Shown here piece by piece: positions 4,407 to 22,360 of a stretch of DNA of 64,000 nucleotides (the stretch's first letter is position 1; every line of letters starts with the position of its first letter). The notes under the pieces were generated by a model. That model had not been told where the DNA came from. It saw only the letters and a list, made by a program, of their open reading frames with translations, and did no database searches. The stretch is taken from contig CAYLXA010000007.1 in NCBI GenBank assembly GCA_964387845.1, forward strand, positions 1 through 64,000, in the 5' to 3' direction. Position numbers and translations under genes: made by a program. Source of the stretch: an uncultured bacterium. GTDB lineage: Bacteria; Omnitrophota; Omnitrophia; Omnitrophales; Abzuiibacteriaceae.

Positions 4407-5332
4407 TGCCAGCTTGGCTCCTGAGACGCTGCATTTTCATTTGTAAACAAGCGAGCATTCTGGCCATTTGCATCCATTGTCCAAACCTGAAGCATACCGG
4501 ATCGATCTGAAGTAAACGCGATTTGTGTTCCATCGGATGACCAGCTGGGATACAAATCTGCGCCCCGCCAATCCGTGAGACGAATTGATTTTTGGGTTTC
4601 CAGGTTCATTACAAAAATATCAAAATTTCCCGTTTCATCCGACGCATAAGCAATATGCTTCCCGTCAGGTGAAAATACGGGATGAATCTCAAGCGCTCTG
4701 TTATGAGTCAGTTGGGTTTCTTTCTTTGTGTCTAATTCAAAAAAGTGAATTTCGTGTGTTCCAAATCCTTTACCAGAAACAAAAACAATTTTCTTTCCAT
4801 CCGGAGAAGCGTGCGGTGCATATTCAAGCCCCGACTTTTTGGTGATAAGCTCGGTTTGTTTTCCTTCAAGATCGGAAATCCAAAGGTCGCTTTCGTCGCT
4901 TAAATTCTTATCAAACCTTGAAAATATGATTTTTTCTATAGTGATAAATGACGGGTCCGTTATCCAGCCAATATCATGCAAAATCTGCTTTTCTTCTTTG
5001 GTTTCAACATCAAATAAATAGAGCTCTCGGTTGTTTGATCGGAAGAGCATTTTCTTCCCATCCGGCGACCAAACAGGACCGCGCTTGTCTAAGGGGGAAC
5101 TGGTTAATTGTTGAGGCGGTTTGTCAGCTTTTTTCATCCAAACTTGCCAATATCCATCGGTTGAACGAATATAGGTAATCGCATCATGGGTATGTGGCAC
5201 TTCCTGAACCGCAAAGCAATTAGATGTGAAAAGAATGGATAATGAAATAACGATCAGGGTTGAAGCTATTCTAGGTTTCTGTCTGACTTCATTGATCGTT
5301 GAGGGCATAATTTGATATGCCAAACGGTACAC
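4403..5332 (-). CDS. TolB-like beta-propeller (PD40/WD40-like repeat) periplasmic protein
   Basis: SPDGK repeats: WSPDGKKMLF, SPDGKKIVFVS, SPDGKHIAYASDETGNFDIFVM, SWSSDGTQIAFTSDRSG. There is an N-terminal hydrophobic signal/anchor. The listed start at 5332 is GTG, and the true start may be the internal ATG (MPSTINE...). The stop overlaps the next start as ATGA. Confidence 0.65.
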   Translation of the reverse strand: MYRLAYQIMPSTINEVRQKPRIASTLIVISLSILFTSNCFAVQEVPHTHDAITYIRSTDGYWQVWMKKADKPPQQLTSSPLDKRGPVWSPDGKKMLFRSNNRELYLFDVETKEEKQILHDIGWITDPSFITIEKIIFSRFDKNLSDESDLWISDLEGKQTELITKKSGLEYAPHASPDGKKIVFVSGKGFGTHEIHFFELDTKKETQLTHNRALEIHPVFSPDGKHIAYASDETGNFDIFVMNLETQKSIRLTDWRGADLYPSWSSDGTQIAFTSDRSGMLQVWTMDANGQNARLFTNENAASQEPSWQ

Positions 5333-5651
5333 AACCTTCTACTTTATGTCAATACAAAGGGTAAAAAAATTGACCAATATCTATTCTGGCTAGACATTTA
5401 TCTGGTATCAGGAGATTTTTTGTTAGAAAAGTCTTTAAGAAGTGGGTTCAAAACAAAAATTCAATGTCCTAGCCGATGAGAGATGCTAAATTCTATGGCT
5501 GACAATCGGGTTAGAAGCGACAGATAATTTACCTTCCGAATCCCGCAAGTTTTGATTAAAATACAACTTCATTTCGGGGTGCCCTGACTTTTTCAAAATC
5601 AGGACAACCCCGAATTTTAATGAATATACTTTGGTTGGTTTAAAGGTAATT

Positions 5652-5724
5652 CGGGGTGTAGCTCAGCGGCTAGAGCACTCGCTTTGGGAGCGAGGGGTCG
5701 TGCGTTCAAATCGCACCATCCCGA
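5652..5724 (+). tRNA. tRNA-Pro (anticodon TGG)
   Basis: I folded the cloverleaf by hand. The acceptor is CGGGGTG/CATCCCG (one GU) with discriminator A. The D-arm is GCTC...GAGC. The anticodon stem CTCGC/GCGAG holds the loop TT-TGG-GA. The T-arm is GTGCG-TTCAAAT-CGCAC. No CCA is encoded. Confidence 0.85.
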
Positions 5725-5856
5725 TTCTTTTTTATCTGCGATTTGAACCAGGTTCTCCGCCAAAAATCGCGGCGGATCCGCCAAGCAGTGTGGCGGAAAA
5801 TCCCGCCACCCCGATACTCGGGTATATTGTGTAAACCATGTGCCAGTAAGTTCACC

Positions 5857-7554
5857 TTACGCGTATTGAATTACTTCGGATACGGTTGTAATTCCCTGCT
5901 TCACTTTTTCAATACCGTCTTCAACCAATCGTTTCATCCCCCGCTTAACAGCTTCATCCCGAAATTGGACGAGTGTCATATTGCGTGAGATGCAATCACG
6001 CAAATAATCGTCAATGATCAGGACTTCATGAATGGCGACACGGCCGAAGTAGCCGGTTCCGTTGCACTGTTCACAGCCTTTACCTCTATAGCATGTGACT
6101 CCAGCCAGGGAAATACCAGCCGGAACAGCGGTGGGCAGTTTATCATCCGCTTGTTTGCAATGCTTGCAAATCTGGCGCACGAGCCGCTGGGCAATCACGC
6201 CTTCAAGACTTGACGCAACTAGATAAGCTTCGATTCCCATATCCATCAAACGCGCAACCGCGCCCGGTGCGTCATTCGTATGTAAAGTTGATAAGACCAG
6301 GTGGCCCGTCAAGGCAGAACGAATCGAAATCTCGGCGGTTTCAAGGTCGCGCGTTTCCCCTACCATCATGACGTCAGGGTCATGACGCAGCATGTGCCGC
6401 AAACCCGAGGCAAACGTGAGCCCAATTTTGGGATGTGTCTGCATTTGAACAACACCCGAGATTTGATATTCAATCGGGTCCTCGATCGTGATGATTTTTT
6501 TACCGGCTTCGTTCAATTCCTTCAGGCAGGCATAAAGCGTTGTGGTTTTACCGCTTCCGGTTGGGCCGGTTAAAAGAAAAATACCTGCGTTCTTCTGGAG
6601 CGCTTTTCGAATTTGAGTTAAATGCGTGCTGCTAAAACCAATTTGTTCCAACCCGACCAACCGAGCCGGTGTTAGGATGCGGATCACGATCGCTTCGCCG
6701 AACGTGGTCGGCAGGATCGATACACGTAAATCCAGCTCATCTTTTTCGGATTTGATTTTGATGCGGCCGTCCTGCGGCAAGCGCTTCTCGGAAACATCAA
6801 GATTGGCCATGATTTTGATGCGTGAAATGATATTGGCATGAAATTTTTGAATCGTTTCGGGAACATTCGCATCGACCAAAGCCCCGTCAACACGGTATCG
6901 GATCGTCAAATGATCCGCAAACGGCTCGATATGGATATCGCTTGCCCGCTTTTTCTGCGCGTCAAACAACAGCTGATTCACCAAATTCCGGACAGTGCCC
7001 TCCGCCTGGGAAGCACCGACATCTTCAACATCCGAAGAAGAAGCTGTTACTGTTTCAGCAACCGGTTTCGGCTTTGTTTTCTTCAGGTCATCTCGGACCA
7101 AGTCCTCCAGGACTGAGGCGCCGATACCATAGTATTTTTGGATGGCCTGATCGATCTTTCGGCGTTCGGCCAGAGCAAATTGAATTTCGGCAGTTAAGAT
7201 AGCGCGCAATTCTTCCAAAAGATCATGGCGAAGCGGATCATTGCTCGCTACTAAAATACCCTGATTCTGAATCCGGATTGGAAAGATATGGTAATGCTGC
7301 GCTACTTTAGCGGGAACTCGGTTTAATACTTCTTTTTCAATCGGTGCTGTAGTCGGGTCCAAATAAGGCAGGTTTAATTGATCGGCCAGCACTTCTAAAA
7401 GCATATGTTCTGAAATAAATCCGAGCCTGACCATAATAGCTCCGAGAGACTCCTTTGTTTCGGTCTGGAGCGATAACGCACGGTCAACCTGCTCAAGCGT
7501 AGCAGCGCCGCGCCGGATCAATTCTTCGCCTAAAAAATAATTCTTTCGCTTCAT
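5857..7554 (-). CDS. gspE: type II secretion system ATPase GspE (PilB/GspE family)
   Basis: It has the N-terminal GSPII_E domain. Walker A is LTGPTGSGKTTTL. A C-terminal tetracysteine zinc motif is present (CKHCKQ...CEQCNG). Confidence 0.9.
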   Translation of the reverse strand: MKRKNYFLGEELIRRGAATLEQVDRALSLQTETKESLGAIMVRLGFISEHMLLEVLADQLNLPYLDPTTAPIEKEVLNRVPAKVAQHYHIFPIRIQNQGILVASNDPLRHDLLEELRAILTAEIQFALAERRKIDQAIQKYYGIGASVLEDLVRDDLKKTKPKPVAETVTASSSDVEDVGASQAEGTVRNLVNQLLFDAQKKRASDIHIEPFADHLTIRYRVDGALVDANVPETIQKFHANIISRIKIMANLDVSEKRLPQDGRIKIKSEKDELDLRVSILPTTFGEAIVIRILTPARLVGLEQIGFSSTHLTQIRKALQKNAGIFLLTGPTGSGKTTTLYACLKELNEAGKKIITIEDPIEYQISGVVQMQTHPKIGLTFASGLRHMLRHDPDVMMVGETRDLETAEISIRSALTGHLVLSTLHTNDAPGAVARLMDMGIEAYLVASSLEGVIAQRLVRQICKHCKQADDKLPTAVPAGISLAGVTCYRGKGCEQCNGTGYFGRVAIHEVLIIDDYLRDCISRNMTLVQFRDEAVKRGMKRLVEDGIEKVKQGITTVSEVIQYA

Positions 7555-7573
7555 AATTTAAATACCTTACCTG

Positions 7574-8098
7574 CTATTTTTTAAGGTTTAAGTACACAAT
7601 ACTCATTTCGGCCGAAATAAAACCTGTGCCGGCGGAGCGCGCGCTAATCACGTAACGACTCACGTAAATCGGCTTTTCAAGCGCCGTCAATGCATGTAAA
7701 AACTCCAAAAAGCTTTGGACATTCCCGTCCACCTGCACCAACAATTCTTCCTGCAGGAATTGACCTTTTTTCTGTTCTCCAACCGGCCGGATTTGCCTCA
7801 AAATCAGGCGATGATCCGCAACCAAACTCGGAATCATATCGGCCCACTTTGATCCCGAATTATCTGTGCTAGTGAATGCAGCAAACGCTTCCAGCTCTTG
7901 CTCCCGTCCTTGAAAATCTGCTTTCGATTCAAGCAGTAAGTTTGACTCCGCATATTCACGGGCTTTTTGATTGAGAGCAAAGCTCAACGAACCGAGCCAT
8001 CTGATATTAAGCGCGGTCAAGCCTAAAAGAATAATAATCAACATGAGGGATTTTCGCAAATCGAAAAACTCGATTAATTTCATTAGTCTTTTTTCCAT
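7574..8098 (-). CDS. GspM/PilO-like bitopic inner-membrane assembly protein
   Basis: A single N-terminal TM segment (LMLIIILLGLTAL) is followed by a roughly 120-aa periplasmic domain. It sits between the GspL-like gene and gspE. Confidence 0.45.
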   Translation of the reverse strand: MEKRLMKLIEFFDLRKSLMLIIILLGLTALNIRWLGSLSFALNQKAREYAESNLLLESKADFQGREQELEAFAAFTSTDNSGSKWADMIPSLVADHRLILRQIRPVGEQKKGQFLQEELLVQVDGNVQSFLEFLHALTALEKPIYVSRYVISARSAGTGFISAEMSIVYLNLKK

Positions 8099-8108
8099 AT
8101 TTTCCCCG

Positions 8109-9506
8109 TTAGTCGAAAGATCTCAAACTGCCCCGAACTGCGAATTGAAATTGCAAATCCCGGGAATCCCGGGAGCTCTCCGAATATTGGAGCTCTACTT
8201 TAGAGAACCAGGCAATACCGCCCAGCGCCTTAACATACCGGTCAATCGCGCTTTGCGAAATTGAAATCCCTTTAAGCCGGACACTCTTATCTTCGCTGTT
8301 GTACTCCAACTCGCTCAATTGAATCTCGCTGCCGGCTTGCTCATGAAGCCGAACAAAAACATCGATCGGGCGGATTTTGTCAAGACGAAGCCGGTTCAAA
8401 AACTTAACTTTTCGGGAAATTTCTTTCACCTCCCTGACATCCGGATCTAAAATCGATAACTGCCGGTTAAAATAAGAAATGCCAAGAAGCTCACGGAGCG
8501 GAAAAAATAACGAGAGCAAGAATGCAGACATACAGCCGAATACAACGGCTGATCGTAGCGTTGCCCAGCTTTTCTGCAAACTGGCGGTAAAAATCCTTCC
8601 CTTGATTTCATCGGGCAGCAAGTTAAATTCTTCACATTCTTCATCCGGCGTTTCTGCGGCAGCAGCGAATAAGAAATCCATCGGTAATGGATTTAACTCA
8701 ACTTCCGGAAGCGCGTGAATTGTGTGCCGTGTCACAAGCCAATCGGATTCCGTTTTATAAAGTTCGCCGCCCAAATAAACGGAAAGAGATCGTTCATCGC
8801 CATTCTGATCTAGCAAGTCAAAAATAGGCCGCAAACCCGCATCCGCAGTATGGGCAAGATCCATGAGGTCATAGGAAAAAGTGCGGCTTAGCTGAACGCC
8901 CTGCAAATCATATAAGACGGCTTCACCTTTTCCGCGGAAGCCAAACAAAAATAAGGCGGGAAGATGCCGTGATTTGTCATGAACTTTCCGCAAATATCCC
9001 GATAGTGCGATTGTCGACAGCAGAATCGAATCAGGCATGATACCAAATGACCGGATGATATCGTACTCGTGCGTCACTGCATCTTTTGAAACGCCGAATA
9101 ATAGAACGGCTGTCTGCACAGTTGCGATTTTGGATTCTGATTTAATTGGATGAAAATGGTAAACAATTTCATCAATCGACGACGGAATTTCCCGCGGCAA
9201 GCGAAGCCGGAGCATTTGCTTGATCTCGTTCAAGTTTTTGGAAGGAAACTGGAAATTTTTGATAAAAGCCCGGTCTCTTGAAATAATATGCCGGTACTCC
9301 AGATTTTTGACGCCGGTTTCGGACAACAATAGGTGCATCTCATGCTTGCGTTCTGCGGCGGTTAGCTTCATGTAAGCAAATTCTTTTCTTGCGATACAAC
9401 GGGCACGGCCTCCGGCCGGTATCTGCAGGATGGCAAAATGCAGGACATCGCCTTGGATTAGGCTAACACCCATTACTCTCGAGGATTCTTTCTTAAAAAT
9501 GCCCAT
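8109..9506 (-). CDS. GspL-like assembly protein (PilM-like cytoplasmic domain + TM + PilN-like periplasmic domain)
   Basis: A roughly 300-aa cytoplasmic actin-like region is followed by a TM segment (VVFGCMSAFLLSLFF) and a C-terminal periplasmic domain. It occupies the gspL position between gspK and gspM. Confidence 0.5.
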   Translation of the reverse strand: MGIFKKESSRVMGVSLIQGDVLHFAILQIPAGGRARCIARKEFAYMKLTAAERKHEMHLLLSETGVKNLEYRHIISRDRAFIKNFQFPSKNLNEIKQMLRLRLPREIPSSIDEIVYHFHPIKSESKIATVQTAVLLFGVSKDAVTHEYDIIRSFGIMPDSILLSTIALSGYLRKVHDKSRHLPALFLFGFRGKGEAVLYDLQGVQLSRTFSYDLMDLAHTADAGLRPIFDLLDQNGDERSLSVYLGGELYKTESDWLVTRHTIHALPEVELNPLPMDFLFAAAAETPDEECEEFNLLPDEIKGRIFTASLQKSWATLRSAVVFGCMSAFLLSLFFPLRELLGISYFNRQLSILDPDVREVKEISRKVKFLNRLRLDKIRPIDVFVRLHEQAGSEIQLSELEYNSEDKSVRLKGISISQSAIDRYVKALGGIAWFSKVELQYSESSRDSRDLQFQFAVRGSLRSFD

Positions 9507-9586
9507 AGCGCTCTTTTAACCTGTCATAATCCAACGACTTTTTATCCTTATTTTTTGAGCTTTTTTTCGGAACCCGGTTCCGTATT

Positions 9587-10672
9587 TTACCCCAACGAAC
9601 TTTCCCGCCAATACAATATTTCGTACGGGTATCCGCGCAAAACATTGTTCATAACGTTTTGGATCCCATAGCCGGACCCGCGCGGCTGTTTGATTAAAAT
9701 CGGGAGCCCTGGGCCTATGACCGTCTCGAGTTTCTGTGGAAGCAATTTGCCTGATTTCTGTCGTTCGAGCTTCACCGAAAAATACTGGGAATCCACCGTG
9801 AAAAACCGCAGTGTAAAATTAACAAGCTGCACCATCTGCGGTGAATTGATGAGGCCCAAACGGTTCATGAAAATCTGCGGAGATAGGTCGGCTGCTTGAA
9901 AAGCAAACGGCGGCTGCTCGGCAGATTTCTTTTCATTTTGCCTTCGAATCGCCAGAAGTCTCTGAATAAGGTCTTTTTTCTCTAAATCACCGCCCGGCTG
10001 ACTGGCGATGATTGCTTCAAGGACCCATTCATTGACTGTGTTAATGTTAACTTTCAGAAAAAAATCAGCTATCGACCCGTAAACCGTAAAGTAGGCCTTC
10101 AATGCCTCGTAATCTTCCGGAGTAATATACTGAATGAGCCTGAGCTCGTCTATGGATTCAAATTTCGCCCGTTTATGTTCATGGCCTAAAGTGGCTTTCC
10201 CCTGCAGCGACTGGACCCCACGCCAGGCCATGATACTTCCAACCAAATCATCCTCGTCGGCCTTTAGTTCGACACCCTTCTCTTTCAGTATCTCGAAAAA
10301 GTTTTGAAGAATCTCCGGGGTAACTTTGTTGAGGTTTAATTTACTTTCCTCATCCGAAACGGTCATGGCTATCCTTTTCGATAGCTCAAAATCGTTGTAA
10401 GCACTTGGATGTCCATACCAAGCTTCCAAATCGGAGTCGTTAAGCGGGTCCTCGTCTTCATTAATTAGATAAGATGCCACATTCACCGCTGATAAATATT
10501 CATAAAGACTGGCCGCTTCACGCTCATGCATGGCAGACAATTGGATTTGAATCCGGCTTCTAAAGCCGACGCTTGCGGCCAGCACTGTCAGTACGATTAA
10601 AATCCAAAGCACAAAGATCAAAATGCTCCCTTGTTTGGGTTGAATTTTTCGGCAAAGCGAGTTTTGAATCAT
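9587..10672 (-). CDS. gspK: T2SS minor pseudopilin GspK
   Basis: The N-terminus is GSILIFVLWILIVLTVLAAS (GspK-type). An SKLNLNKVTPEIL motif (KxNxN) is present. Confidence 0.75.
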   Translation of the reverse strand: MIQNSLCRKIQPKQGSILIFVLWILIVLTVLAASVGFRSRIQIQLSAMHEREAASLYEYLSAVNVASYLINEDEDPLNDSDLEAWYGHPSAYNDFELSKRIAMTVSDEESKLNLNKVTPEILQNFFEILKEKGVELKADEDDLVGSIMAWRGVQSLQGKATLGHEHKRAKFESIDELRLIQYITPEDYEALKAYFTVYGSIADFFLKVNINTVNEWVLEAIIASQPGGDLEKKDLIQRLLAIRRQNEKKSAEQPPFAFQAADLSPQIFMNRLGLINSPQMVQLVNFTLRFFTVDSQYFSVKLERQKSGKLLPQKLETVIGPGLPILIKQPRGSGYGIQNVMNNVLRGYPYEILYWRESSLG

Positions 10673-11352
10673 GACGACCCCAAAAGCTGCGTTAAAATCC
10701 CTTGCGGAATTAAAAAATCTAGAGTTTCTTCGGTATTGTTCGTAACTTTTCCTTTGATTGCAAACCGGATTGCCCGCGGAATCCCTTGATAAGGCTTATC
10801 CGAGAGCTCGTTTTTCCAAATAAGGTTACCGTCATGCATTTTGTAAGCAAATTGAAACTTGCAAGCCGAAAGCGGAAGCAAAGGCTCTGATTCCGGATTA
10901 CCGCTATCCGAAAATTTTTTCCTAATCTTCTGCTCTGTCCGGACAATTTGCCCGTCCCGGCATTGGTAACTCACTTGATACAAATCTTCTGTTAACTGAT
11001 CCCGGTCATAGCGCCACAGCCGGGCCGGAAACTCGAGTTTGTCGGATTTTCCTTCAAACGGAACCGGTGCATAAAAAATAGCAGCTCGTAGTTCTTTTCC
11101 CAGCTGCGCGGTTAACATGCTGAGTTCATGGCGGCTTCCCAACTGAGATTCAATGCGTTGGTACGCCACAAATCCCCCTCTAAAAGCACCGTAAGCCGAA
11201 ATAACCACCACCGCAAACAAAGAAAGCGCGATAATCATTTCAATCATCGTAAAACCAAACACGCAGCGGCTTTTGTTATGATTTTTTCTGGTTTCCATAT
11301 TGTGCCATATAGAAAACATCCTGAAAAAAAGATCTCTGTCTTGCATCAACAA
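10669..11352 (-). CDS. prepilin-type minor pseudopilin, GspJ-like
   Basis: It carries the prepilin N-methylation motif GFTMIEMIIALSLFAVVV. It sits at the gspJ position. The start is probably internal to the listed ORF (METRK...). Confidence 0.55.
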   Translation of the reverse strand: MLMQDRDLFFRMFSIWHNMETRKNHNKSRCVFGFTMIEMIIALSLFAVVVISAYGAFRGGFVAYQRIESQLGSRHELSMLTAQLGKELRAAIFYAPVPFEGKSDKLEFPARLWRYDRDQLTEDLYQVSYQCRDGQIVRTEQKIRKKFSDSGNPESEPLLPLSACKFQFAYKMHDGNLIWKNELSDKPYQGIPRAIRFAIKGKVTNNTEETLDFLIPQGILTQLLGSS

Positions 11353-11743
11353 CTTGAAAACTCACTTTGTAAAACTCGACGGTTTTCTTAACCGGGTTCC
11401 TGGGTGGCTGAGGATTTTCCTGCCGCTCTTTTTCATCTTCTTCCTCAGGCGCCAACGGCGTTAGCTTTTCAGCTGAGATACGCGCGGCCAAATTACTTTT
11501 CTCTCCCTCGGCGGAAAATAATTGCAACATTGATGGATCAAACGAAACAGGATCCAAATACCAGCCGAGAAGTTTCTGATCCAGAATTTTATGAACTTCA
11601 TTTGCTTTAATCGACCGGTTCGATACCGAAAGAGATCCGGAAAATACACGAAGCGCTGATACGACGCCGATGGCCAAAATCGTAGTGGCAATCAGCGCTT
11701 CGATCAGAAGCGCGCCTTTAGTGAATCGGGGCCGGTTAAGCAC
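11276..11743 (-). CDS. minor pseudopilin, GspI-like
   Basis: The N-terminus is KGALLIEALIATTILAIGVV, a degenerate prepilin motif with Glu at +5. The size is small. It sits at the gspI position. Confidence 0.5.
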   Translation of the reverse strand: MLNRPRFTKGALLIEALIATTILAIGVVSALRVFSGSLSVSNRSIKANEVHKILDQKLLGWYLDPVSFDPSMLQLFSAEGEKSNLAARISAEKLTPLAPEEEDEKERQENPQPPRNPVKKTVEFYKVSFQVVDARQRSFFQDVFYMAQYGNQKKS

Positions 11744-12245
11744 GGCTCACCTCGACGGTGCCGATCCGGTTCTTAAGCCTGAACAGCATCCGCTCGCGAC
11801 CGGATTCTTTCAGAAGAATCAGCCGGTTTTTGGATGAAGAGCCATCCGGATAAAACAAGATCTCACCACCCCTTTCACTTTCAAGTGATAACGATTCACC
11901 AAGCCGGAAAGACCTGATCAGGCTTGATTTGACGGGTTCAAACCCGCGCCCTTCTTCATTTTGGCGTTTGATATGTAACTGTCTTTTGTCAGAGCTCACT
12001 GCAAGCTGATAGACTAGCCCGTCCTGCAATGCTTTCATTTGCAAAAACCTAAAAACCGTTTCGATGCCTCGCGTGGCATGGTCCAGCTCATTTTGGCGAT
12101 TCGTTTCAACCATCCGGACAGCGCCGAATCCCACCAGGATCACGATTAAGGTCAGCACCACAAGCTGCTCGACCAATGTGAAACCTTTCGGCCGGCGGCT
12201 AGCTTTTGTATGGATATTATTTAATGAAATTTTGCTGCAAGACAT
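11736..12245 (-). CDS. prepilin-type pseudopilin, GspH-like
   Basis: It carries the canonical KGFTLVEQLVVLTLIVILVGFG motif. The C-terminal ILFYPDGSSSKNRLILL is GspH/FimT-like. Confidence 0.6.
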   Translation of the reverse strand: MSCSKISLNNIHTKASRRPKGFTLVEQLVVLTLIVILVGFGAVRMVETNRQNELDHATRGIETVFRFLQMKALQDGLVYQLAVSSDKRQLHIKRQNEEGRGFEPVKSSLIRSFRLGESLSLESERGGEILFYPDGSSSKNRLILLKESGRERMLFRLKNRIGTVEVSRA

Positions 12246-13041
12246 ATTCTTTCCAGCTCTCTTCCATTTCTTCTAAAGTAGAAAAATCCTGCTTAAAACT
12301 TTTGAGCATGGCTTGCTCAAACTCGACGCCGTCCCGCAGAGACCTGCAAAAGTTAATGAAATAAGAAGGATCTCGATTTTCGAGCAAAAACCGGACCATG
12401 CTTTCAGATTGTGAATAAAATAATCCCGCGTCTTCTGTCTTTTTCTCATGCAGAAAATTCATTTGGTTCAAACTTCGTAGCGGAATCGTTTTCCCCTCTT
12501 CGACCGCCTTGGCTACAATGGCTTGATACTGTCTTTTTTCTCCTTCCTCCTGCCACACGGCAAAACCCTCATCCAGCCACCTCGGAATCTGTCCATTCTG
12601 AAACCCGACGAATTCTCTGAAAATCAGGTGCGCCATTTCGTGCGGTAGCACGGACTCCAAAAAGCGGGGTGCATTTTGATAGCTGACAATCGTGCGCCGA
12701 GACGGAATCGAAAACCCGCCCGACCATTCGGGTTGTTTCGAATAAGTTAAGTATGCACTTTGGGAATCATACAAATAGATTTTGCAACGGTTGTCCCACA
12801 GCCAGAAATTTTTCTGAGGCAGCGAACCAAAATAGCGGACAGTTCGGTCGTAACTTTGCTCAGCGTAAAACAAAACCGATTGCGCAAAACCCGAATCCAC
12901 GCCTCGTTGTGCATAGACCAAAAAGTGGGTCCCTTTCAGCTCCCGCCATCCCTCTTCAGCGTAAAGCGTTTTTCCGGAAAAAATGGCGGAAAAGAATAAA
13001 AGAAAGGAAAATGTCAGGGAAAGAGCTCTATTTATATGCAT
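12217..13041 (-). CDS. secreted MA-clan zinc metallopeptidase-like protein (Peptidase_MA_2/DUF1570-like)
   Basis: It has a signal peptide (MHINRALSLTFSFLLFFSAIFSG). An HExxH motif (LPHEMAHLIF) is followed by WLDEGFAVWQEEGE. It is embedded between gspF and gspH. Confidence 0.5.
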   Translation of the reverse strand: MHINRALSLTFSFLLFFSAIFSGKTLYAEEGWRELKGTHFLVYAQRGVDSGFAQSVLFYAEQSYDRTVRYFGSLPQKNFWLWDNRCKIYLYDSQSAYLTYSKQPEWSGGFSIPSRRTIVSYQNAPRFLESVLPHEMAHLIFREFVGFQNGQIPRWLDEGFAVWQEEGEKRQYQAIVAKAVEEGKTIPLRSLNQMNFLHEKKTEDAGLFYSQSESMVRFLLENRDPSYFINFCRSLRDGVEFEQAMLKSFKQDFSTLEEMEESWKEYVLQQNFIK

Positions 13042-13046
13042 AAGGC

Positions 13047-14291
13047 TTATTGGGCCAGCAAATTAATTTCAAATATTGGAAGAAGCAGCGAGAGAACAAT
13101 AAATCCGATGCCTAAACCAATGACCAAAATCAGCACTGGTTCTAACAGCGTCGTACCAAGCCTTAATTTTCGATCTAGCTCACGCTCGTAAAACACAGCG
13201 ATTCTTTCGAAAATTTTATCGAGATTGCCGCTCTCTTCCCCAACCGTCAGGAAACTGGTGACCAGCTCCGGAAACATGCGCGTCTCATCAATTGAGCTGC
13301 TCAGTGTTGAACCTTGCGAAACTTGCATGGCAACTTGTTTAAGCGAAGCTCTAAGGGCAGGATCCATGACAACTTGCTCTGTAATTTTAATGGAATCGAT
13401 CAACGAAACACCGCTTTTAAGCAAGAGCGACCAAGTTCTAGCGAGCGGTACGAAATCCGCCAAGAAGAAAAGAGAATTGAACGTCGGAACTTTTTTAACG
13501 ATACTCGCCACCAACGCCTGCTTCGCCTGCCGGCCCATCCGGTTCCAAGCCAAAATTGCTGCTATTAAAACACCAAGCGCTGCAAACCCGAGCCCATTCG
13601 TGAACAATTGGCTTAACGACAACAAAATGCGGGTCGGTAGCGGCAGCGGATGTTCCCAGGTTTCAAAAAAGACCATCAACTTAGGAATAATGAAGGTCAT
13701 AATCAGGATCACGGTGACAACACCAAAAAGCATGACAAAAAGCGGATACGCAAGTGCTTGTGTGATTTTTGCACGCAGTTCAGCTTCGGCTTCAAACGAT
13801 TTCGAAAGTTCGGCAAATACAACATCCAATTTACCGCTTGCCTCACCTGCTTGGACAGCGCCTGAAACGGTCGGCGGGAAAATATTGGGGAAATTAGCAA
13901 CCGCCTCCGAAAGCTTGATTCCGCTCTGAATATCGGCCGCCATATGATCCAAAGCAGCGGTTAGTGTCGGATGGCGGACTTGTTTCTTAACCAACTGCAG
14001 ACTCTTTAAGAGCGGAAATCCGGAGACCAGCAAAAGCGACAGATGATCAAAAATATTGGCAAGGTCGCGTGCCGAAACTTTCTTGCCTGTTTTCCATTCA
14101 AAACGTTTTGCTTTAAACAAGGAAGGTGCTTTTTGGGGCGCAGACTTTTTAGTATCGGCTTGGATTGAAAGCGGGAAAAAACCCTGAGAAGTTAATTTCT
14201 GGTAAACAGCAGCTTCGGATTCTGCCTCAAGCGTCCCCCTAACAACTTCTCCTCGGCTGTTTTTAGCTTCGAACTGGTATCTTTGAATCAT
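13047..14291 (-). CDS. gspF: type II secretion system inner-membrane platform protein GspF
   Basis: It has the duplicated GspF domain architecture and three TM segments. The N-terminus MIQRYQFEAKNSRGEVVRGTLEAESE is typical. Confidence 0.9.
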   Translation of the reverse strand: MIQRYQFEAKNSRGEVVRGTLEAESEAAVYQKLTSQGFFPLSIQADTKKSAPQKAPSLFKAKRFEWKTGKKVSARDLANIFDHLSLLLVSGFPLLKSLQLVKKQVRHPTLTAALDHMAADIQSGIKLSEAVANFPNIFPPTVSGAVQAGEASGKLDVVFAELSKSFEAEAELRAKITQALAYPLFVMLFGVVTVILIMTFIIPKLMVFFETWEHPLPLPTRILLSLSQLFTNGLGFAALGVLIAAILAWNRMGRQAKQALVASIVKKVPTFNSLFFLADFVPLARTWSLLLKSGVSLIDSIKITEQVVMDPALRASLKQVAMQVSQGSTLSSSIDETRMFPELVTSFLTVGEESGNLDKIFERIAVFYERELDRKLRLGTTLLEPVLILVIGLGIGFIVLSLLLPIFEINLLAQ

Positions 14292-14300
14292 TGAAACCGC

Positions 14301-16478
14301 TTAGCTGACTTCAAACTTGAGATCAAGCAGCTCTTGATCCGAATCCATGTCCTTTGAAAATGGCGGAAAAGGTGAAAGCGATTTGACTGCTTCCGTAATA
14401 ATGCGCACCTCATGCTCGGATAAGCCGGTATCGCTGGCTACATAACTCAATTCAACAGCACCGCTTTTATCCACAATCAAAAAGAGTTCAAACTTTGCGG
14501 TCAATTTCTGAAACTCAGGCCTTTGGTTCAATACTTCGGCGATTGCCGCGTGTATCATCCCCCGATAGTATTCTCTTGCACGATGAGACGCCGGCAAAAT
14601 CTCGCCTCCTTGGGGCGTTAATTCCATGTAATCATTGACGCTACCCCGGTTCGGCAAAGACGCTATCGAAGAGTTTCGTGGGGCAATCATAAGCGGCTTT
14701 TCTTTGACGGGAGATTCCCAATAGGGTTCATCATTTAGGCGAAACGGCCCATGAGAAGTAGTGGATTGTGCCTTCAGAAAATCATAGCCGCCGACCTTGT
14801 CAAAATCGACCCATTCGCCCTGCTTATCTAAATATCGCTGCCGCTCCATGGAATCCGACTTCCCGTCGACGATGCGCGGCGTCAGAAACACCACAAGCTC
14901 CGTCTTATTAAAATCATTCGATTCTGTCCGGAATGCAGCGCCCACCCATGGAATATCACCCAAAAACGGAATCTTCTTCCTGGTTTTTCCGTGGCGGTCT
15001 TGCATTAGCCCGCCGATCACAACCGTGGCTCCATCCCGCGCAACCACAGTCGTTTCAAGTGTTTGGGTCGTCACAACCGGAACAACCGTACGGACAAAAG
15101 TCGCATCACTGCCTGATGCTGCGCCCTGCAATTGGAGCGGGTCGCCTGCCGTACTGACTTCGGGTTTCACTTTTAATACAACCGAGCGGTCTTCTGAGAT
15201 CGTGGGAACAACTGAAAGTGTGACGCCAACGTCGATAAACTGAACCTGGTCAGCAGTGGTCGACGTCGATTGGCTCTGGGAAACCGTTTGCGAAACAAAC
15301 GGCTGCCGGGTTGCAACTGCGAGCTTGGCTTCCTCATTATTCAAAACCAATAAACGCGGGCTCGATAAAATATTCGTCTTTCCGATATTTTGCAAAATAC
15401 TGATGACACTCTGAAAACTTGTCGGGTCGTTTTCACCGCCTTCTTCGCCGATGGTGAATGTACTTAAACTGCCGCCGCCAAGCGTCGATGACGGAGCTGA
15501 TACGGAAAAATTCGGCGCCGCATTAAACATTTTGGCATCGCCGAGCCTGCTTGCAACATAATTCCAATTCACACCGAACCTGTAAGCATCGAAAAGCTGG
15601 ACTTCAACCACCTTTGCATCAATCAAGACTTGAAGGGGCCGCACATCAAAAGCTTTTATGATTTTTGCAACCTGATCAACGTTTTCCTTGCGGTCGGTGA
15701 TAGAAACCTGATTAGTTCGTTTATCGATTTTAAGAAGCCCAGTGGTTGCAGTCAAAAAATCCTTTAATTGAGTTTCCAGATCGGCAACTTTAGCAAACTG
15801 AAGCGTAAAAACTTTGGTGACGAGCGGCTCATCAAAAGAGTTCACGGCCTCTTCAATTTCATCCAGAACTTCGGGCATATCCGTCACGATCACCGTGCTG
15901 GTTCGCTCATCCAGCGCGATCCGGCCGGATGTGCTTTTCATGGTTTGCAGCACGGTATTCATGGCTTGAGGATTGGCATATTTGAACTTAAAAGTCCGCG
16001 TTTCCCTTTCATCGCGAAATGGTTTTCCGAATTTTGATTCGTATTCCTTGTTACCCATCACGGTAATAATGCCGTCCTTTTCTTCATAAGCAAGCCCGAG
16101 CGTTTGAACCACAGTATCCAATGCCTTTCGGACTTCAACATCTTGAAGATACAGCGTGACGTCGCCCTTTACATCGCGCCCGGCAACAATATTAAGCCCG
16201 CTCCGCTTTGACAAAATTTTCAAAACATCTAAGACATTCACGCCTTTAAGTTCCAGCGTGATGGTTGAGGAGGTTATTCCGCGCGAAGTTGCACCAGAAG
16301 CTGTATAGTCAACCGGCGGCTGTGAGAAATTAGAAAAGGTTTCTTCCGAATCTGAATAAGAAGGAGGGCTGTTGGGATCTTGGGCAATCGCGAACGGAAT
16401 CGCCGGTAAACCGCTTAACATAAGACCAACGCTTAAGAAAAAAGCGAGCATGCGTGATTTCATTTTAGGTCTCCTCAA
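14301..16478 (-). CDS. gspD: T2SS secretin GspD with C-terminal extension (TonB_C-like?)
   Basis: Signal peptide, N0/N1/N2 domains (LKGVNVLDVLKILSKRSGLNIVAG) and a secretin core (VVIGGLMQDR...IPFLGDIPWVGAAFR...ELVVFLTPRIV) are present. A roughly 190-aa extra C-terminal tail follows. Confidence 0.9.
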   Translation of the reverse strand: MRRPKMKSRMLAFFLSVGLMLSGLPAIPFAIAQDPNSPPSYSDSEETFSNFSQPPVDYTASGATSRGITSSTITLELKGVNVLDVLKILSKRSGLNIVAGRDVKGDVTLYLQDVEVRKALDTVVQTLGLAYEEKDGIITVMGNKEYESKFGKPFRDERETRTFKFKYANPQAMNTVLQTMKSTSGRIALDERTSTVIVTDMPEVLDEIEEAVNSFDEPLVTKVFTLQFAKVADLETQLKDFLTATTGLLKIDKRTNQVSITDRKENVDQVAKIIKAFDVRPLQVLIDAKVVEVQLFDAYRFGVNWNYVASRLGDAKMFNAAPNFSVSAPSSTLGGGSLSTFTIGEEGGENDPTSFQSVISILQNIGKTNILSSPRLLVLNNEEAKLAVATRQPFVSQTVSQSQSTSTTADQVQFIDVGVTLSVVPTISEDRSVVLKVKPEVSTAGDPLQLQGAASGSDATFVRTVVPVVTTQTLETTVVARDGATVVIGGLMQDRHGKTRKKIPFLGDIPWVGAAFRTESNDFNKTELVVFLTPRIVDGKSDSMERQRYLDKQGEWVDFDKVGGYDFLKAQSTTSHGPFRLNDEPYWESPVKEKPLMIAPRNSSIASLPNRGSVNDYMELTPQGGEILPASHRAREYYRGMIHAAIAEVLNQRPEFQKLTAKFELFLIVDKSGAVELSYVASDTGLSEHEVRIITEAVKSLSPFPPFSKDMDSDQELLDLKFEVS

Positions 16479-16995
16479 TCAAAATTTCTTTTTCATCTCC
16501 GGCACACCTGATGATAACACTGTGGTTTTGGATCAATTGGATTGAAACGCCTTCAAGATCGTTTCCGGCTGTTACAAAATGAGTCTGGCGCGTGCGCTTA
16601 TTCACAAAGATTGCTTCATTTTGGCCGCCTTGAACAATTCCTGATAAGGAAAAAGTTTGGCCAAAATCATCACAAGGGCTTTTACTAACCACCGTTTCCT
16701 GTTTCGCGGTACCGAAAATAGGATGAGCATCGATAATTTGGCTGTAAACATCTATCGGCTGCAGCTCCGGCAAATCCCGCAAACCCATGACCTCTTGCTC
16801 CGGATGCATGCTGCCAAGTTTTTGAAAATAAAAAGGGCTTGAAAGCATCGCAAAAATTAGATAACCAAATACCACAAGCGCCGCCAGAAAAAATAAGAAT
16901 GAAGCCCGATCCTGCCACAAGCCTTTTCCGACAACCGGCCGGATCACATACTTTAAGATCGGATTAGACTTCATTTCGTCCATAATTATCGACAT
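16465..16995 (-). CDS. GspC/PilP-like secretin-interacting protein
   Basis: An N-terminal TM segment (FLFFLAALVVFGYLIFAML) is followed by a C-terminal beta domain (FSLSGIVQGGQNEAIFVNKRTRQTHFVTAGNDLEGVSIQLI) resembling the GspC HR/PilP fold. It overlaps the secretin start. Confidence 0.45.
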   Translation of the reverse strand: MSIIMDEMKSNPILKYVIRPVVGKGLWQDRASFLFFLAALVVFGYLIFAMLSSPFYFQKLGSMHPEQEVMGLRDLPELQPIDVYSQIIDAHPIFGTAKQETVVSKSPCDDFGQTFSLSGIVQGGQNEAIFVNKRTRQTHFVTAGNDLEGVSIQLIQNHSVIIRCAGDEKEILIEET

Positions 16996-17068: not shown

Positions 17069-18148
17069 TCAAAAAATTGACCTCTCCTTATAGATGCTCA
17101 CCAAAAGACCGATAGCCACAAAAGTTGCAACCAATGAAGAACCTCCATAACTCAGAAGCGGGAGTGTGATGCCGGTAATGGGCGCAATGCCAATCGTCAT
17201 CCCAAGATTGATAAAAATCTGAAAAAACAGCATGGCCGTAATTCCAGCCGCCAACAGTTGCGCTCCGCGATCCGTAGTTCGCTCCATAATTTGAACGGCA
17301 TAAGTAATTAAAGCACCATACAAAAGAATAAGCAAAAGCGACCCTAAAAATCCAAACTCTTCACCCACCACACAAAAAATAAAGTCAGTGTGATGCTCCG
17401 GTACAAAATCAAGTTGGGTCTGTGTTCCCTGCAACCATCCTTTCCCGACAAGTCCACCCGAACCTACTGCAATTTTAGACTGCATGGCCGTATAACCCGA
17501 GCCCAACGGATCAATATTTGGATTCACGAAGACAGTTAAGCGTTTCTGTTGATAAGGTTTCAGCATGTGCCACAAGAAAGGCGCGCTGATCAGCACAACG
17601 CTAAACACAGCTGCCAGATAACGGAATTTGATGCCCCAAATGACTAAAATAGCGAGGGTAGCGGCAATAAAAACCATAGACGTGCCCAAATCCGGCTGTT
17701 TCAGAATCAAAACAAACGGAAGCGCGACAATTGCGGCAGCCATCAGCAGACTTCGTTTTTGTCCATGCCACCGGTCTCGATAGAGTAAAAAATGGGAAAG
17801 TGCAAGAATGGTCGTGATTTTGCTGAATTCAGAGGGCTGCAAGACAAACGGCCCTATTTGAAACCAGCGCTGAGCTCCCAAACGCTCATGGCCGAATATC
17901 AAAACCGACAGCAGCAGACAAATCGAAATTCCGTACAATAAATAAGACGCGTTCAAAAATGTGCGGTATCCAAACATGATGACGAGCAGCATGGCCGCCA
18001 AAGAAAAAGAAATCCACACCAATTGTTTGACAATAAAATGATCTGTGCCACGAAAAGTTGCGCTATAAATAAACAAAACGCTGCTTAAAGCAATGCCTAA
18101 GGCTAAAAAAATAATCGGCCAATGAACGTCCTTAAAATATCGGATCAC
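17069..18148 (-). CDS. rodA: rod shape-determining protein RodA (SEDS family)
   Basis: It is a multi-TM FtsW/RodA family protein (PDLGTSMVFIAATLAILVIWGIKFRY). It lies adjacent to mrdA. Confidence 0.9.
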   Translation of the reverse strand: MIRYFKDVHWPIIFLALGIALSSVLFIYSATFRGTDHFIVKQLVWISFSLAAMLLVIMFGYRTFLNASYLLYGISICLLLSVLIFGHERLGAQRWFQIGPFVLQPSEFSKITTILALSHFLLYRDRWHGQKRSLLMAAAIVALPFVLILKQPDLGTSMVFIAATLAILVIWGIKFRYLAAVFSVVLISAPFLWHMLKPYQQKRLTVFVNPNIDPLGSGYTAMQSKIAVGSGGLVGKGWLQGTQTQLDFVPEHHTDFIFCVVGEEFGFLGSLLLILLYGALITYAVQIMERTTDRGAQLLAAGITAMLFFQIFINLGMTIGIAPITGITLPLLSYGGSSLVATFVAIGLLVSIYKERSIF

Positions 18149-18157
18149 AAACTCACC

Positions 18158-19921
18158 TTAAATCGTTACCGGCGGCAAAATCGGTTTGATAAATTCTTCC
18201 TGCGTCGCATAAAGTTCATGCCATGCCATCACAATTTTTTTCGCCAGTGACGCGGCCACCAAACCGCCGGAGCCGCCATGCTCAACGACGATCACAAGCG
18301 CAACCTGCGGCTTTTCGTACGGAAAAAAGCCGGCAAACCAGGCGTGCGAAAGCCTCGGTGGCGCTTGGGCTGTTCCGGTTTTAGCGGCCAGCCTCATGAA
18401 GTCAACGCGCGCCAGCTGCCCGGTGCCGTATTTTGATTCCGTCACTTTAAGCATGCCTTGCCGGATCGTTTTCAAAGTAGATACTTTAATCGGAATCGAT
18501 TCCAAATCTTCCGCCGGCGCATCCTGCTTGAGCAGCGTCGGTTTCACAATTTTACCGTCATTTGCGATAATAGACACTAACCTGAGAATTTGAAGTGGGG
18601 TTGTTTGTACATAACCCTGCCCGATTGCGAAAGTAATCGTTTCGCCTTCGTACCAATGCTGGCCGGGCTTGCTTTCTTTCCATTCGGCAGAAGGAATAAA
18701 ACCGTCAGAAGCCGGAATCTCAAGCTCTAACGGCTCTCCCAATCCAAGCAGATGCGAATATTTCGAAAGCGACTTCTCTCCGACAATCCGGCCAAGATTA
18801 TAAAAATAAACATTGCAGGAACGTTCAAGCGCGCCGAACAAATTAACACTGCCGTGGCCCAGAGCATCCCAGCATTTAAATCTCCTGGATCTTGCAGAGA
18901 GCCGGTAGTAACCCGGACAATTAAAAGTAGAATTCGGCGTGATTTTTCCCGTCTCAAGACCGGCGGCGGCCGTCACAAGCTTAAAGACCGAGCCGGGCGG
19001 GTATGCACTCATCACAGAACGGTTAATCAACGGCCGCCTTGAATTTTTCATTAACCTCACGCGGTCTCGATCGCGGCCCGGCTCGACAAACACATTCGGA
19101 TCATAACCCGGATTGCTGAGCATCGTCAGCATTTCCCCGGTCTGTAAATCCATCATCAGTACTGCGCCGGTCTTTTCCCCGAAAATCGGCAAGATTTTGG
19201 ACCCCAACTCAAGGTCAAGCGATAATTGAACATCCGAACCCGGTACCGGTTTTTTTTCGCTCAAAACACTCAATTGCTCGCCGCGGGCATTAACTTCGAT
19301 TTGTTTGCCGCCATCCTCACCTCTTAACATGGCGTCAAAACTTTTTTCGATTCCGATGCGGCCGATATCAGAATTAATCGCATATACATCCCGGTCAGCA
19401 TTCCGGTATTCAGTATCCGTAATTTTCCCGATGTAACCGATGACATGCGAGCTAATTTCATAAGCCGGATAATGGCGAACGCCTTGGACATCGATAAACA
19501 CGCCGGATAGAAGCGGGCTTTTTTCTTCTATTTGAATGGCGAGGTCTTTTCCGATATCTTTCTTGAGAATGACAGGTGTCAATGATTTCGAACGAACGGA
19601 AGATAATTGTTTCCGGATTTCGGATACGGGCAGATTAAGAAACTTACTCAAAACGGGCAAATCCTTTGGATCAAAATCTTCCGGAATAATCGAAACGTTA
19701 TAGGAAGTACGGCTCGTGGCAAACGGTTTTCCGTTCCGGTCCAAAATTTGGCCGCGCGGCGCCATGGTGCGGACAAGCCGGATACGGTTATGCTCACTTA
19801 CCCGGCGGTAATGACCGGTCCGGATCACTTGAATTTGAAACAGGCACACCAAAAGCAAAAACAGAAGCGTGTAAGCGGTAAATTTAAACAATTGGATTCT
19901 TTGCGTAATTGATTTCAGCAT
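18158..19921 (-). CDS. mrdA: penicillin-binding protein 2 (peptidoglycan D,D-transpeptidase MrdA)
   Basis: An N-terminal TM anchor and PBP dimerisation domain are present. The transpeptidase active-site motif is SVFK. Confidence 0.9.
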   Translation of the reverse strand: MLKSITQRIQLFKFTAYTLLFLLLVCLFQIQVIRTGHYRRVSEHNRIRLVRTMAPRGQILDRNGKPFATSRTSYNVSIIPEDFDPKDLPVLSKFLNLPVSEIRKQLSSVRSKSLTPVILKKDIGKDLAIQIEEKSPLLSGVFIDVQGVRHYPAYEISSHVIGYIGKITDTEYRNADRDVYAINSDIGRIGIEKSFDAMLRGEDGGKQIEVNARGEQLSVLSEKKPVPGSDVQLSLDLELGSKILPIFGEKTGAVLMMDLQTGEMLTMLSNPGYDPNVFVEPGRDRDRVRLMKNSRRPLINRSVMSAYPPGSVFKLVTAAAGLETGKITPNSTFNCPGYYRLSARSRRFKCWDALGHGSVNLFGALERSCNVYFYNLGRIVGEKSLSKYSHLLGLGEPLELEIPASDGFIPSAEWKESKPGQHWYEGETITFAIGQGYVQTTPLQILRLVSIIANDGKIVKPTLLKQDAPAEDLESIPIKVSTLKTIRQGMLKVTESKYGTGQLARVDFMRLAAKTGTAQAPPRLSHAWFAGFFPYEKPQVALVIVVEHGGSGGLVAASLAKKIVMAWHELYATQEEFIKPILPPVTI

Positions 19922-19936
19922 GAATGATGCTCTTGA

Positions 19937-21246: not shown

Positions 21247-21271
21247 CGAATCCCCCTACCGCTAGAGAGTA

Positions 21272-22360
<1,089 letters not shown>

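Follow-up and report, generated by a model that had tools for sequence, protein, structure and literature searches.

Does a type II secretion system (T2SS) locus that carries neither the major pseudopilin gene gspG nor the prepilin peptidase gene gspO encode a secretion machine, another kind of type IV filament, or a remnant? This question is raised by a gene cluster on the minus strand (16995-5857) of contig CAYLXA010000007.1 (assembly GCA_964387845.1), from an uncultured bacterium of the phylum Omnitrophota. We analysed positions 1 to 64,000 of this contig, hereafter called the window. By combining family scans of the window proteins (Pfam and NCBIfam/TIGRFAM models) with profile and fold comparisons and with a survey of related loci, we found that the cluster is probably the Omnitrophota version of a T2SS-class type IV filament machine, encoded in one compact operon and supplied with GspG and a prepilin peptidase from elsewhere in the genome. 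Its gene order, the absence of G and O and the presence of an extra gene are conserved properties of a family of loci almost confined to Omnitrophota.

Results

Organization of the cluster

The cluster comprises 11 open reading frames (ORFs) whose junctions either overlap or leave a gap of at most 80 bp. From its upstream to its downstream boundary, the features are the following.

17069..18148, minus strand: rodA (PF01098, E 1.7e-99), the upstream boundary and the last gene of the mreBCD-mrdA-rodA block
16465..16995, minus strand: gspC-like gene, 176 aa, with an N-terminal transmembrane (TM) helix and a C-terminal HR-type domain
14301..16478, minus strand: secretin gene, 725 aa, with STN/N0, two Secretin_N domains, the secretin core and a C-terminal extension
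13047..14291, minus strand: gspF, inner-membrane platform, 414 aa (PF00482, E 1.5e-56, in two stretches)
12217..13041, minus strand: Sec-exported gluzincin metallopeptidase gene, 274 aa, with HEMAH followed by WLDEG and a signal-peptide-like N-terminus
11736..12245, minus strand: gspH-like minor pseudopilin gene, 169 aa, with KG/FTLVE and an N_methyl match; best model TIGR01708 GspH (E 1.7e-8)
11276..11743, minus strand: gspI/PilV-like minor pseudopilin gene, 155 aa, with KG/ALLIE and weak PilV/ComGE matches; its position is kept in relatives
10669..11352, minus strand: gspJ-like minor pseudopilin gene, 227 aa as an ORF and 216 aa according to the gene caller, with FG/FTMIE
9587..10672, minus strand: gspK, tip pseudopilin, 361 aa (NF037980, E 1.9e-24, below cut-off), with the motif DEESKLNLN
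8109..9506, minus strand: gene of the GspL equivalent, 465 aa, with a cytoplasmic PilM-like domain, a TM helix around residue 315 and a periplasmic PilN domain
7574..8098, minus strand: gene of a GspM/PilO-like bitopic protein, 174 aa, with one N-terminal TM helix
5857..7554, minus strand: assembly ATPase gene, 565 aa, with an N-terminal MshEN domain, the T2SSE core and a tetracysteine motif
5651..5725, plus strand: tRNA-Pro(TGG) gene (ARAGORN), the downstream boundary

The order C-D-F-peptidase-H-I-J-K-L-M-E, with gspE last, had been read in the original prediction and was borne out by the ORF map and the family scans. Likewise, its parts list (a GspC HR-like domain, the secretin, GspF, prepilin motifs on H, I and J, the GspK motif and the GspE ATPase) agreed with our family scans, profiles and GspK fold, and the cluster does lie between tRNA-Pro and the mre/mrd genes. 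The mreB-mreC-mreD-mrdA-rodA block (17069-22333) is on the same strand directly upstream of gspC, with only 73 bp separating rodA and gspC. No terminator signal above background was found near rodA/gspC, promoter and terminator counts being those of shuffled sequence, and co-transcription of the cluster with rodA is possible.

The gene order is conserved in Omnitrophota

When one genome per species was scanned, 221 related stretches were obtained, 80 of which were kept, overwhelmingly from metagenome-assembled genomes (MAGs) of Omnitrophota. We labelled the ORFs of these 80 loci (these and other related loci are designated here by L numbers) with the window proteins and with reference seeds. 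Homologues of GspK were few, and those with a named source belonged to Candidatus Omnitrophica. The identical 11-gene order was found in L002, L003/L004/L006, L007, L008, L009, L010 and L086, that is in at least six independent Omnitrophota assemblies, with GspK identities to the window protein from 74% down to 35%. Across these same-order loci, component identities ranged over 52-90% for E, 45-80% for D, 41-81% for F, 40-73% for the peptidase and 35-74% for K. Since the same order recurs in at least six independent assemblies, the arrangement is neither an assembly artefact nor a remnant.

Part of the upstream neighbourhood is shared as well. The genes mreD-mrdA-rodA lie directly upstream of gspC in L002, L003/L004/L006 and L007, at GspK identities down to ~41%. 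The corresponding mre-rodA blocks were located at L002:1-3518 and L003/L004:1-3132, with an HTH_17 gene preceding gspC in L003/L004. This link is absent in L009 and L086. Among the 80 loci, the commonest architecture was E-F-(peptidase)-G-(pilin)-J-K-L-(M)-(C-D), hereafter type B, and a third type had the order C-D-F-x-J-K-L-M-E. Together, these data indicate that the 11-gene arrangement is a stable lineage feature of Omnitrophota. Thus, the non-canonical order pointed out in the original prediction is real, but it is a conserved architecture of this phylum rather than a peculiarity of one locus.

GspG and the prepilin peptidase are not encoded in the operon

The original prediction had also stated that gspG and gspO are missing from the window. 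A scan of all six reading frames of the 64 kb found three prepilin motifs only, and no PilA-type pilin or other prepilin gene was present in the window beyond the three genes that carry these motifs. When 65 Omnitrophota GspG proteins were used as tblastn queries, only the N-terminus of the H gene and one chance match were hit, and no gspG remnant was detected near tRNA-Pro or anywhere else in the window. This chance match, a marginal one at 27082-27456, was rejected as a remnant, as it lies inside an ORF whose translation reads as RpiB-like. E. coli GspO, GspG and PpdD and a PilD seed gave no tblastn match in the window at E<=1. In addition, the window lacks an A24 motif, and gspE encodes its only Walker-A ATPase of this family; none of its polytopic membrane proteins matches an A24 peptidase, and a PilT seed matched gspE only. 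We also considered a 168-aa protein with five predicted TM helices (58642-59148, minus strand) as a minimal prepilin peptidase and rejected it, since it has neither a Pfam match nor an A24 motif. The motif scan, the search with 65 GspG proteins and the E. coli queries thus all bear out the absence of both genes from the window.

We then looked at gspG in the related loci. The G proteins of sister loci matched PF08334 T2SSG with ~100 bits, displayed the pattern YELDNG.YP...DPWG...GxDG....DDI.NW as in E. coli GspG, and are named 'type II secretion system major pseudopilin GspG' by PGAP. The position of their genes varied. First, gspG lies between F/peptidase and H in 48 of 59 loci (including L011, L012 and the type-B loci). 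Second, L086 has it upstream of gspC and for the rest matches the gene order of the window exactly. Third, it follows gspE in L016 and gspM in L093. Finally, assembly GCA_001804285.1 has a window-type locus without gspG (L009, on contig MHFR01000068) and an orphan canonical gspG of 135 aa on another contig (MHFR01000019), among dxs, an NAD kinase gene, gltX and a HIT gene. Two further MAGs combine a window-like locus with a second, G-bearing locus: L010, which has no gspG, occurs with L073, and L012, which keeps its gspG, occurs with L052. A candidate GspG (P0200) was rejected as this organism's own because it came from a different sample.

In L011 and L012, G and H are neighbours, and the pilin gene that follows the peptidase gene in the window is orthologous to their H, not to their G, indicating that G left the operon in the clade of the window. 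Together with the variable positions of gspG, the orphan in GCA_001804285.1 makes supply from elsewhere in the genome the best explanation for its absence here. As for the prepilin peptidase, E. coli GspO and the PilD seed found no match in ~85 related loci. This fits the known sharing of the enzyme between systems, prepilin peptidases often serving more than one of them (Denise et al. 2019, PMC6668835).

The pseudopilins and GspC are of the T2SS type

The DEESKLNLN motif of GspK was invariant or nearly so across 15 homologues. The AlphaFold2 model of GspK (pLDDT 82.5) had significant matches in the Protein Data Bank (PDB) only to GspK of enterotoxigenic E. coli (ETEC; 3ci0_K, E 1.7e-10) and to XcpX, the P. 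aeruginosa homologue of GspK (9a1f_T and 5vtm_X), these fold matches spanning E 1.7e-10 to 1.2e-8. H, I and J have the glutamate at position +5, which K lacks. The gspJ-like protein matched PF11612 T2SSJ (E 5e-6) and N_methyl (E 7e-6), and no T2SSG domain was found in the H protein of the window.

For the GspC-like protein, the match of the single sequence to Pfam T2SSC was weak (E 0.026). A profile of 15 orthologues matched the GspC HR domain in the ETEC GspC-GspD complex (3oss_C) with E 2.6e-6. No PDZ or coiled-coil second domain was seen in this protein. We conclude that the pseudopilin module is T2SS-type.

The secretin, platform and ATPase have mixed affinities

The secretin was readily recognised (PF00263, E 1.8e-46; PF03958, E 6e-25), and the Pfam scan reported no AMIN domain in it. 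Beyond ELVVFLTPRIV, which ends the secretin domain, the protein extends for ~188 aa (residues ~538-725; 14304-14867, minus strand). Window-type loci keep this extension (188-229 aa), whereas the majority of other Omnitrophota secretins have a short one or none. When a profile was compared with the PDB, the final ~90 residues matched the C-terminal domains of TonB (5lw8/6sly, E ~4e-4); a conserved DFDKVGGYDF...PYWE motif stands ahead of this TonB_C-like domain.

GspF scored 313.9 bits with TIGR02120 GspF (below the cut-off of 424), compared with 239 for HofC and 237 for PilC; among E. coli proteins, it was closer to GspF (149 bits) than to HofC (124 bits).

The ATPase matched PF00437 (E 1.2e-129) and, over residues 60-145, PF05157 (E 3e-19). 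Compared with E. coli proteins, its core was nearer to GspE (351 bits) than to HofB (302 bits). Its first 59 residues passed the NCBIfam model for the MshE-type motif that binds cyclic di-GMP (c-di-GMP), with 51 bits for a cut-off of 38. Residues 8-59 (7378-7533, minus strand) comprise two 24-residue motifs and a 5-residue spacer, in keeping with the c-di-GMP motif as defined by Wang et al. 2016 (PMC5013675). Most of the Leu, Gly and Gln positions are retained and both leading Arg residues are replaced (F7, S36), so that c-di-GMP binding by this N-terminus is plausible as judged from its motifs. A related arrangement was seen in many type-B loci, in which the ATPase is much longer (~715-790 aa) and a separate ~150-aa ORF upstream of its gene matches the MshEN N-terminal domain only (for example in L037, L059, L060, L068 and L079; also L093:195-635). 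From its domain content, this ORF looks like a stand-alone c-di-GMP-receptor-like protein.

The 465-aa L protein matched PF05137 PilN at residues 387-458 and had a weak PilM-like N-terminus (E 0.0018). Its architecture is GspL-like, with a cytoplasmic actin-like domain fused through one TM helix to a periplasmic domain and the gene of a small bitopic partner next to it. At the position of this partner (M), the L093 protein gave T2SSM/PilO Pfam matches.

Taken module by module from scores, profiles and folds, the locus would be filed as a T2SS-class type IV filament machine with motor parts resembling those of type IVa pili (T4aP). The name T2SS is right for the pseudopilin/GspC module, and the affinities of the motor are mixed. 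The T2SS identity proposed originally therefore stands for that module, through the GspK fold, the GspC HR profile and the T2SSG-type GspG of sister loci, but not without reserve for the motor and alignment parts, which are equally T4aP-like.

Secretion machine, pilus or remnant?

Several points weigh against a T2SS-class assignment. Every T2SS equivalog model scored below its curated cut-off. The secretin reached 279 bits with the GspD model (cut-off 351) and 262 with that of PilQ, both below cut-offs, and was slightly closer to PilQ than to GspD in the PDB (125 versus 114 bits) and to HofQ than to GspD among E. coli proteins (121 versus 95 bits). The GspE and PilB models hardly separated for the ATPase (TIGR02533, 562.9 bits for a cut-off of 630, versus TIGR02538, 561.4 bits, also below cut-off), whose best PDB relatives were PilB/PilF (446 bits over residues 8-563) ahead of GspE (373 bits); it is because of the MshEN N-terminus that the full-length protein is best matched by PilB/PilF. 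With a profile of 29 orthologues, the N-terminal two thirds of L matched PilM (3jc8_M, E 1.8e-33) and its C-terminus PilN (E 5e-5), and no GspL structure was matched. A profile of 13 orthologues of M matched Myxococcus PilO (E 5e-5) and not the GspM structures. Moreover, the seeds behind part of the labels in related loci were checked only afterwards, by comparison with the E. coli proteins (212.6 bits for GspG, 98 bits for GspO). Finally, gspG and gspO of this genome itself were not found, their supply from elsewhere in the genome being deduced from relatives.

Could the cluster then encode a true T4aP, used for attachment to host or prey cells and not for secretion, in which a GspG-like protein from elsewhere is polymerised into a surface pilus? 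The nearest solved structures of the ATPase, L, M and secretin, together with the PilB/MshE type of the MshEN domain, speak for it, as do the T4aP clusters that were reported beside F-type ATPases in Omnitrophota (PMC10066038), an arrangement of which L093 shows an example. However, the major subunits of sister loci belong to the T2SSG family and are not of the PilA type, GspK has a T2SS-specific fold and GspC an HR domain, PilM and PilN are fused as in GspL, and the secretin has no AMIN domain. Moreover, no PilT match was obtained in the window or in ~85 related loci, GspF favours GspF models and proteins, and the core of the ATPase scores higher with E. coli GspE than with HofB. We therefore regard a true T4aP as unlikely. 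As read from the genes, the output of the machine would be compatible with either protein secretion or a surface pilus.

Other explanations start from the missing gspG. The cell might dispense with GspG altogether, the 169-aa GspH-like protein serving as the major filament subunit: it is encoded directly after the peptidase, in the slot where type-B loci have G, it has a canonical G/FTLVE with Glu5, and there is no G within 64 kb. But its orthologues in L011 and L012 have a separate G next to them, its best family match is GspH and not T2SSG, an orphan canonical gspG exists in another genome that has this type of locus, and in L086 G is retained upstream of gspC, all of which makes this idea highly improbable. 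We give even less credence to decay of the locus into a non-functional remnant. It is true that neither the operon nor the window contains two genes which T2SS models treat as mandatory; yet the eleven ORFs of the operon are intact and tightly coupled, their order and sequence are conserved in at least six independent assemblies at GspK identities down to ~35%, and the Walker A motif, the tetracysteine motif, HExxH plus Glu and the prepilin motifs are all retained. The reading that we prefer thus remains a T2SS-class machine whose GspG and prepilin peptidase would come from outside the operon.

A gluzincin peptidase is a conserved part of the operon

The extra gene noted in the original prediction is present (PF13485 Peptidase_MA_2, E 3.9e-20, 72.9 bits for a cut-off of 32.4), but, far from being an insertion, it belongs to the conserved components of this locus family. 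Of the 59 loci that cover the interval from gspF to gspG/H, at least 32 have a peptidase gene in it (34 if two over-extended ORFs are counted), and this position is kept across locus types in which GspK identity is only ~25-30%. Conservation of the peptidase exceeds that of the pseudopilins, L, M and C. Residues H134, E135, H138 and E158 were invariant in 49 homologues, and the homologues of related loci all have hydrophobic N-termini and HExxH...EG.

In its AlphaFold2 model (pLDDT 91.7), the closest folds found by Foldseek were the peptidase domains of M9 collagenases, followed by M1 enzymes. It shares with M9 collagenases and M1 aminopeptidases the HExxH motif with a downstream Glu as zinc ligands and a thermolysin-like fold of two subdomains (E 4e-8 to 1e-5, TM-score ~0.55-0.63), and on the strength of this modelled fold we classify it as a gluzincin of clan MA(E). 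It differs from them by its low identity (12-17%), its small size (~245 mature residues), the lack of activator, PKD and collagen-binding modules, and its genomic context, namely T2SS-like loci and dcw clusters.

Homologues of the peptidase were nearly all from Omnitrophota. Clustering of 156 family members gave three T2SS-linked groups and a 70-member group without any T2SS-linked member. For two members of the latter, looked up independently, the gene separates murG from murC within a dcw cluster that is standard in other respects (L087:10001-10768 and L088:6001-6786), and these dcw paralogues are ~35-37% identical to the embedded peptidase. We found no literature on a peptidase of this family (Peptidase_MA_2/PF13485) in T2SS-like loci. 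Since a Sec-exported protease of one family occurs in both dcw and T2SS-like operons, the latter behind elongasome genes in the clade of the window, the simplest reading of these sequences and neighbourhoods is that of a periplasmic protease directed at the cell envelope. Its role may be peptidoglycan remodelling or assembly of the machine, a hypothesis that we prefer tentatively. What tells against it is that the argument is one of gene neighbourhood and that the nearest solved folds, those of collagenases and M1 aminopeptidases, do not include a known peptidoglycan hydrolase.

Some T2SS operons carry the gene of a cargo protein, such as pulA with pul and sslE/yghJ with the E. coli T2SS-beta. 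The embedded peptidase could likewise be a dedicated substrate that the machine secretes to aid an Omnitrophota cell living as a predator or parasite. A Sec signal peptide is present and a lipobox or membrane anchor is not, the fold is nearest to that of secreted bacterial collagenases, and a predatory or parasitic way of life has been suggested for the phylum (PMC10066038). However, its gene is part of the core operon, where it separates gspF from the pseudopilin genes and the ORFs overlap or nearly abut. It keeps that place across deeply diverged locus types (GspK ~25-30%), its conservation exceeds that of most structural parts, which is an unusual pattern for cargo, and the paralogous murG-murC clade in dcw clusters points to the cell envelope rather than to prey. 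A cargo function therefore seems somewhat doubtful to us, and we keep to an envelope-directed protease as the working view.

Elsewhere, passage through the cell wall is provided for by specialised lytic transglycosylases or GspAB. A bolder proposal, to which we assign a low probability, is that these exported gluzincins of ~260 residues, found mainly in Omnitrophota, constitute an undescribed accessory of trans-envelope machines that remodels peptidoglycan or envelope for both the secretion/pilus machine and the divisome. If true, this would combine with the mreBCD-mrdA-rodA adjacency and the TonB_C-like domain of the secretin into an unusually tight coupling between a T2SS/T4P-intermediate machine and cell-wall synthesis.

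Genes around the cluster and elsewhere in the window

Adjacent to the cluster, the original prediction had placed a secreted RHS operon with plausible substrates of the machine. On the downstream side of the cluster, the region 943-5332 (minus strand) encodes three consecutive signal-peptide proteins, namely a 309-aa protein with TolB-like PD40 repeats, a 351-aa protein with FlgD_ig and an 803-aa protein with a beta-helix and FlgD_ig, and the motif scan found no RHS/YD motif anywhere in the 64 kb window. There is thus no RHS operon, and with it the claim about its products as substrates loses its basis. The three products are possibly surface or secreted proteins. The downstream neighbourhood differs in relatives, with a rhodanese gene in L002 and a Fic or transposase gene in L003 and L004.

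At L086:17888-20786, the gspE gene and a 220-aa gene are followed by a very large ORF (at least 2094 aa) that runs off the locus and has cadherin, PKD, He_PIG, Big_9 and CarboxypepD_reg domains; its product may be an adhesin or a cargo protein. In L093, a gene for ATP-synt_ab (F-type ATPase alpha/beta) lies at 1-192, directly upstream of the E-F-x-J-K-L-M-G cluster. Among the 80 loci, a crude motif scan turned up a single F-type ATPase candidate, in part because the flanks are short.

The rest of the window, as far as scanned, contains housekeeping genes, for example for purine synthesis, glyA and nrdR. Its largest ORF is 803 aa, and no giant gene is present. At 54799-56679 (minus strand), we noticed a 626-aa signal-peptide protein with an N-terminal metzincin-like domain (weak Reprolysin_5 and Peptidase_M10 matches) and many TPR repeats, which could be another exported protease.

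Discussion

Comparison with known systems

With the canonical T2SS of Proteobacteria (E. coli Gsp, Klebsiella Pul, Vibrio Eps, Pseudomonas Xcp), the locus has in common the secretin, GspF, the GspC HR domain, the GspH/I/J/K tip set and the fold of GspK. It also has a fused platform protein like GspL, the major subunit of its family is a T2SSG-domain GspG, and no PilT gene is nearby. Its gene order departs from that of E. coli K-12, C-D-E-F-G-H-I-J-K-L-M-O, and neither gspG nor gspO is in the operon. Further differences from the canonical systems are the PilB/MshE-type MshEN domain on the ATPase, the PilM/PilN/PilO-like sequences of L and M, the embedded gluzincin and the TonB_C-like C-terminal domain of the secretin. 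Among solved structures, the ATPase, L, M and secretin are matched best by T4aP machines (Myxococcus PilB/M/N/O/Q, Thermus PilF, Geobacter PilB), and MshEN is shared. These machines differ in that the present locus has no PilA-type pilin or PilT (in the window, and for PilT also in ~85 loci), fuses PilM to PilN, has a TM-anchored GspC HR protein in place of the PilP lipoprotein and a GspK-type tip, and lacks AMIN in its secretin.

In Omnitrophota, Seymour et al. 2023 (PMC10066038) reported 'type-4a pilus' clusters called by TXSScan in nearly all members of the phylum, often beside a non-respiratory F-type ATPase. These clusters come from the same phylum as our loci, among which L093 adjoins an F-type ATPase gene, and the published T4aP label probably refers to the present family of loci. 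GspG/GspK-type pseudopilins, the embedded peptidase and the gspG-less variant linked to mre-rodA are not described in the searched text of that paper. Another T2SS-like locus of the phylum, upstream of giant genes (West-Roberts et al. 2023, bioRxiv 10.1101/2023.11.21.568195), resembles ours in having homologues of gspD/E/F along with small genes whose products have class III signal peptides. It differs by rcpC (Tad-type), a Rotamase_2 peptidyl-prolyl isomerase and its giant-gene neighbours, and GspK, GspG and an MA peptidase are not mentioned for it. Mixed T2SS/T4aP affinities as such have precedents in non-canonical or chimeric T2SS, such as the chlamydial one and the Cytophaga 'T2SS' that groups with T4aP (PMC6668835); in contrast to the present family, the survey by Denise et al. 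2019 does not mention Omnitrophota and describes no peptidase accessory. None of our findings amounts to a categorically new kind of system.

A possible mode of action

If the established T2SS/T4P model is transferred to these parts, a PilB/GspE-type hexameric ATPase, possibly tuned by c-di-GMP through MshEN, would drive the GspF platform. The PilM-PilN fusion (the GspL equivalent) and the PilO/GspM-like protein would form the inner-membrane assembly platform, which the GspC HR domain would connect to the outer-membrane secretin. A GspH-I-J-K tip complex would prime the (pseudo)pilus, whose major subunit GspG would come from outside the operon, as would the prepilin peptidase, an enzyme presumably shared between systems. 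The embedded zinc gluzincin, periplasmic or secreted, would be a conserved accessory, most likely for envelope- or peptidoglycan-associated proteolysis that serves assembly and less likely as a dedicated cargo.

Implications

A gspG gene that moves around the locus or out of it matters for automatic callers, which require mandatory genes to be co-localised. Since Denise et al. 2019 derive the T2SS from T4aP (PMC6668835), loci that join T2SS-type pseudopilins and GspC to T4aP-type motor and alignment parts can serve to date the transition from one to the other and to dissect it. Finally, the gluzincin, with one gene in the operon and a paralogue in dcw clusters, is a concrete starting point for testing whether this uncultivated and possibly predatory phylum possesses a new accessory function.

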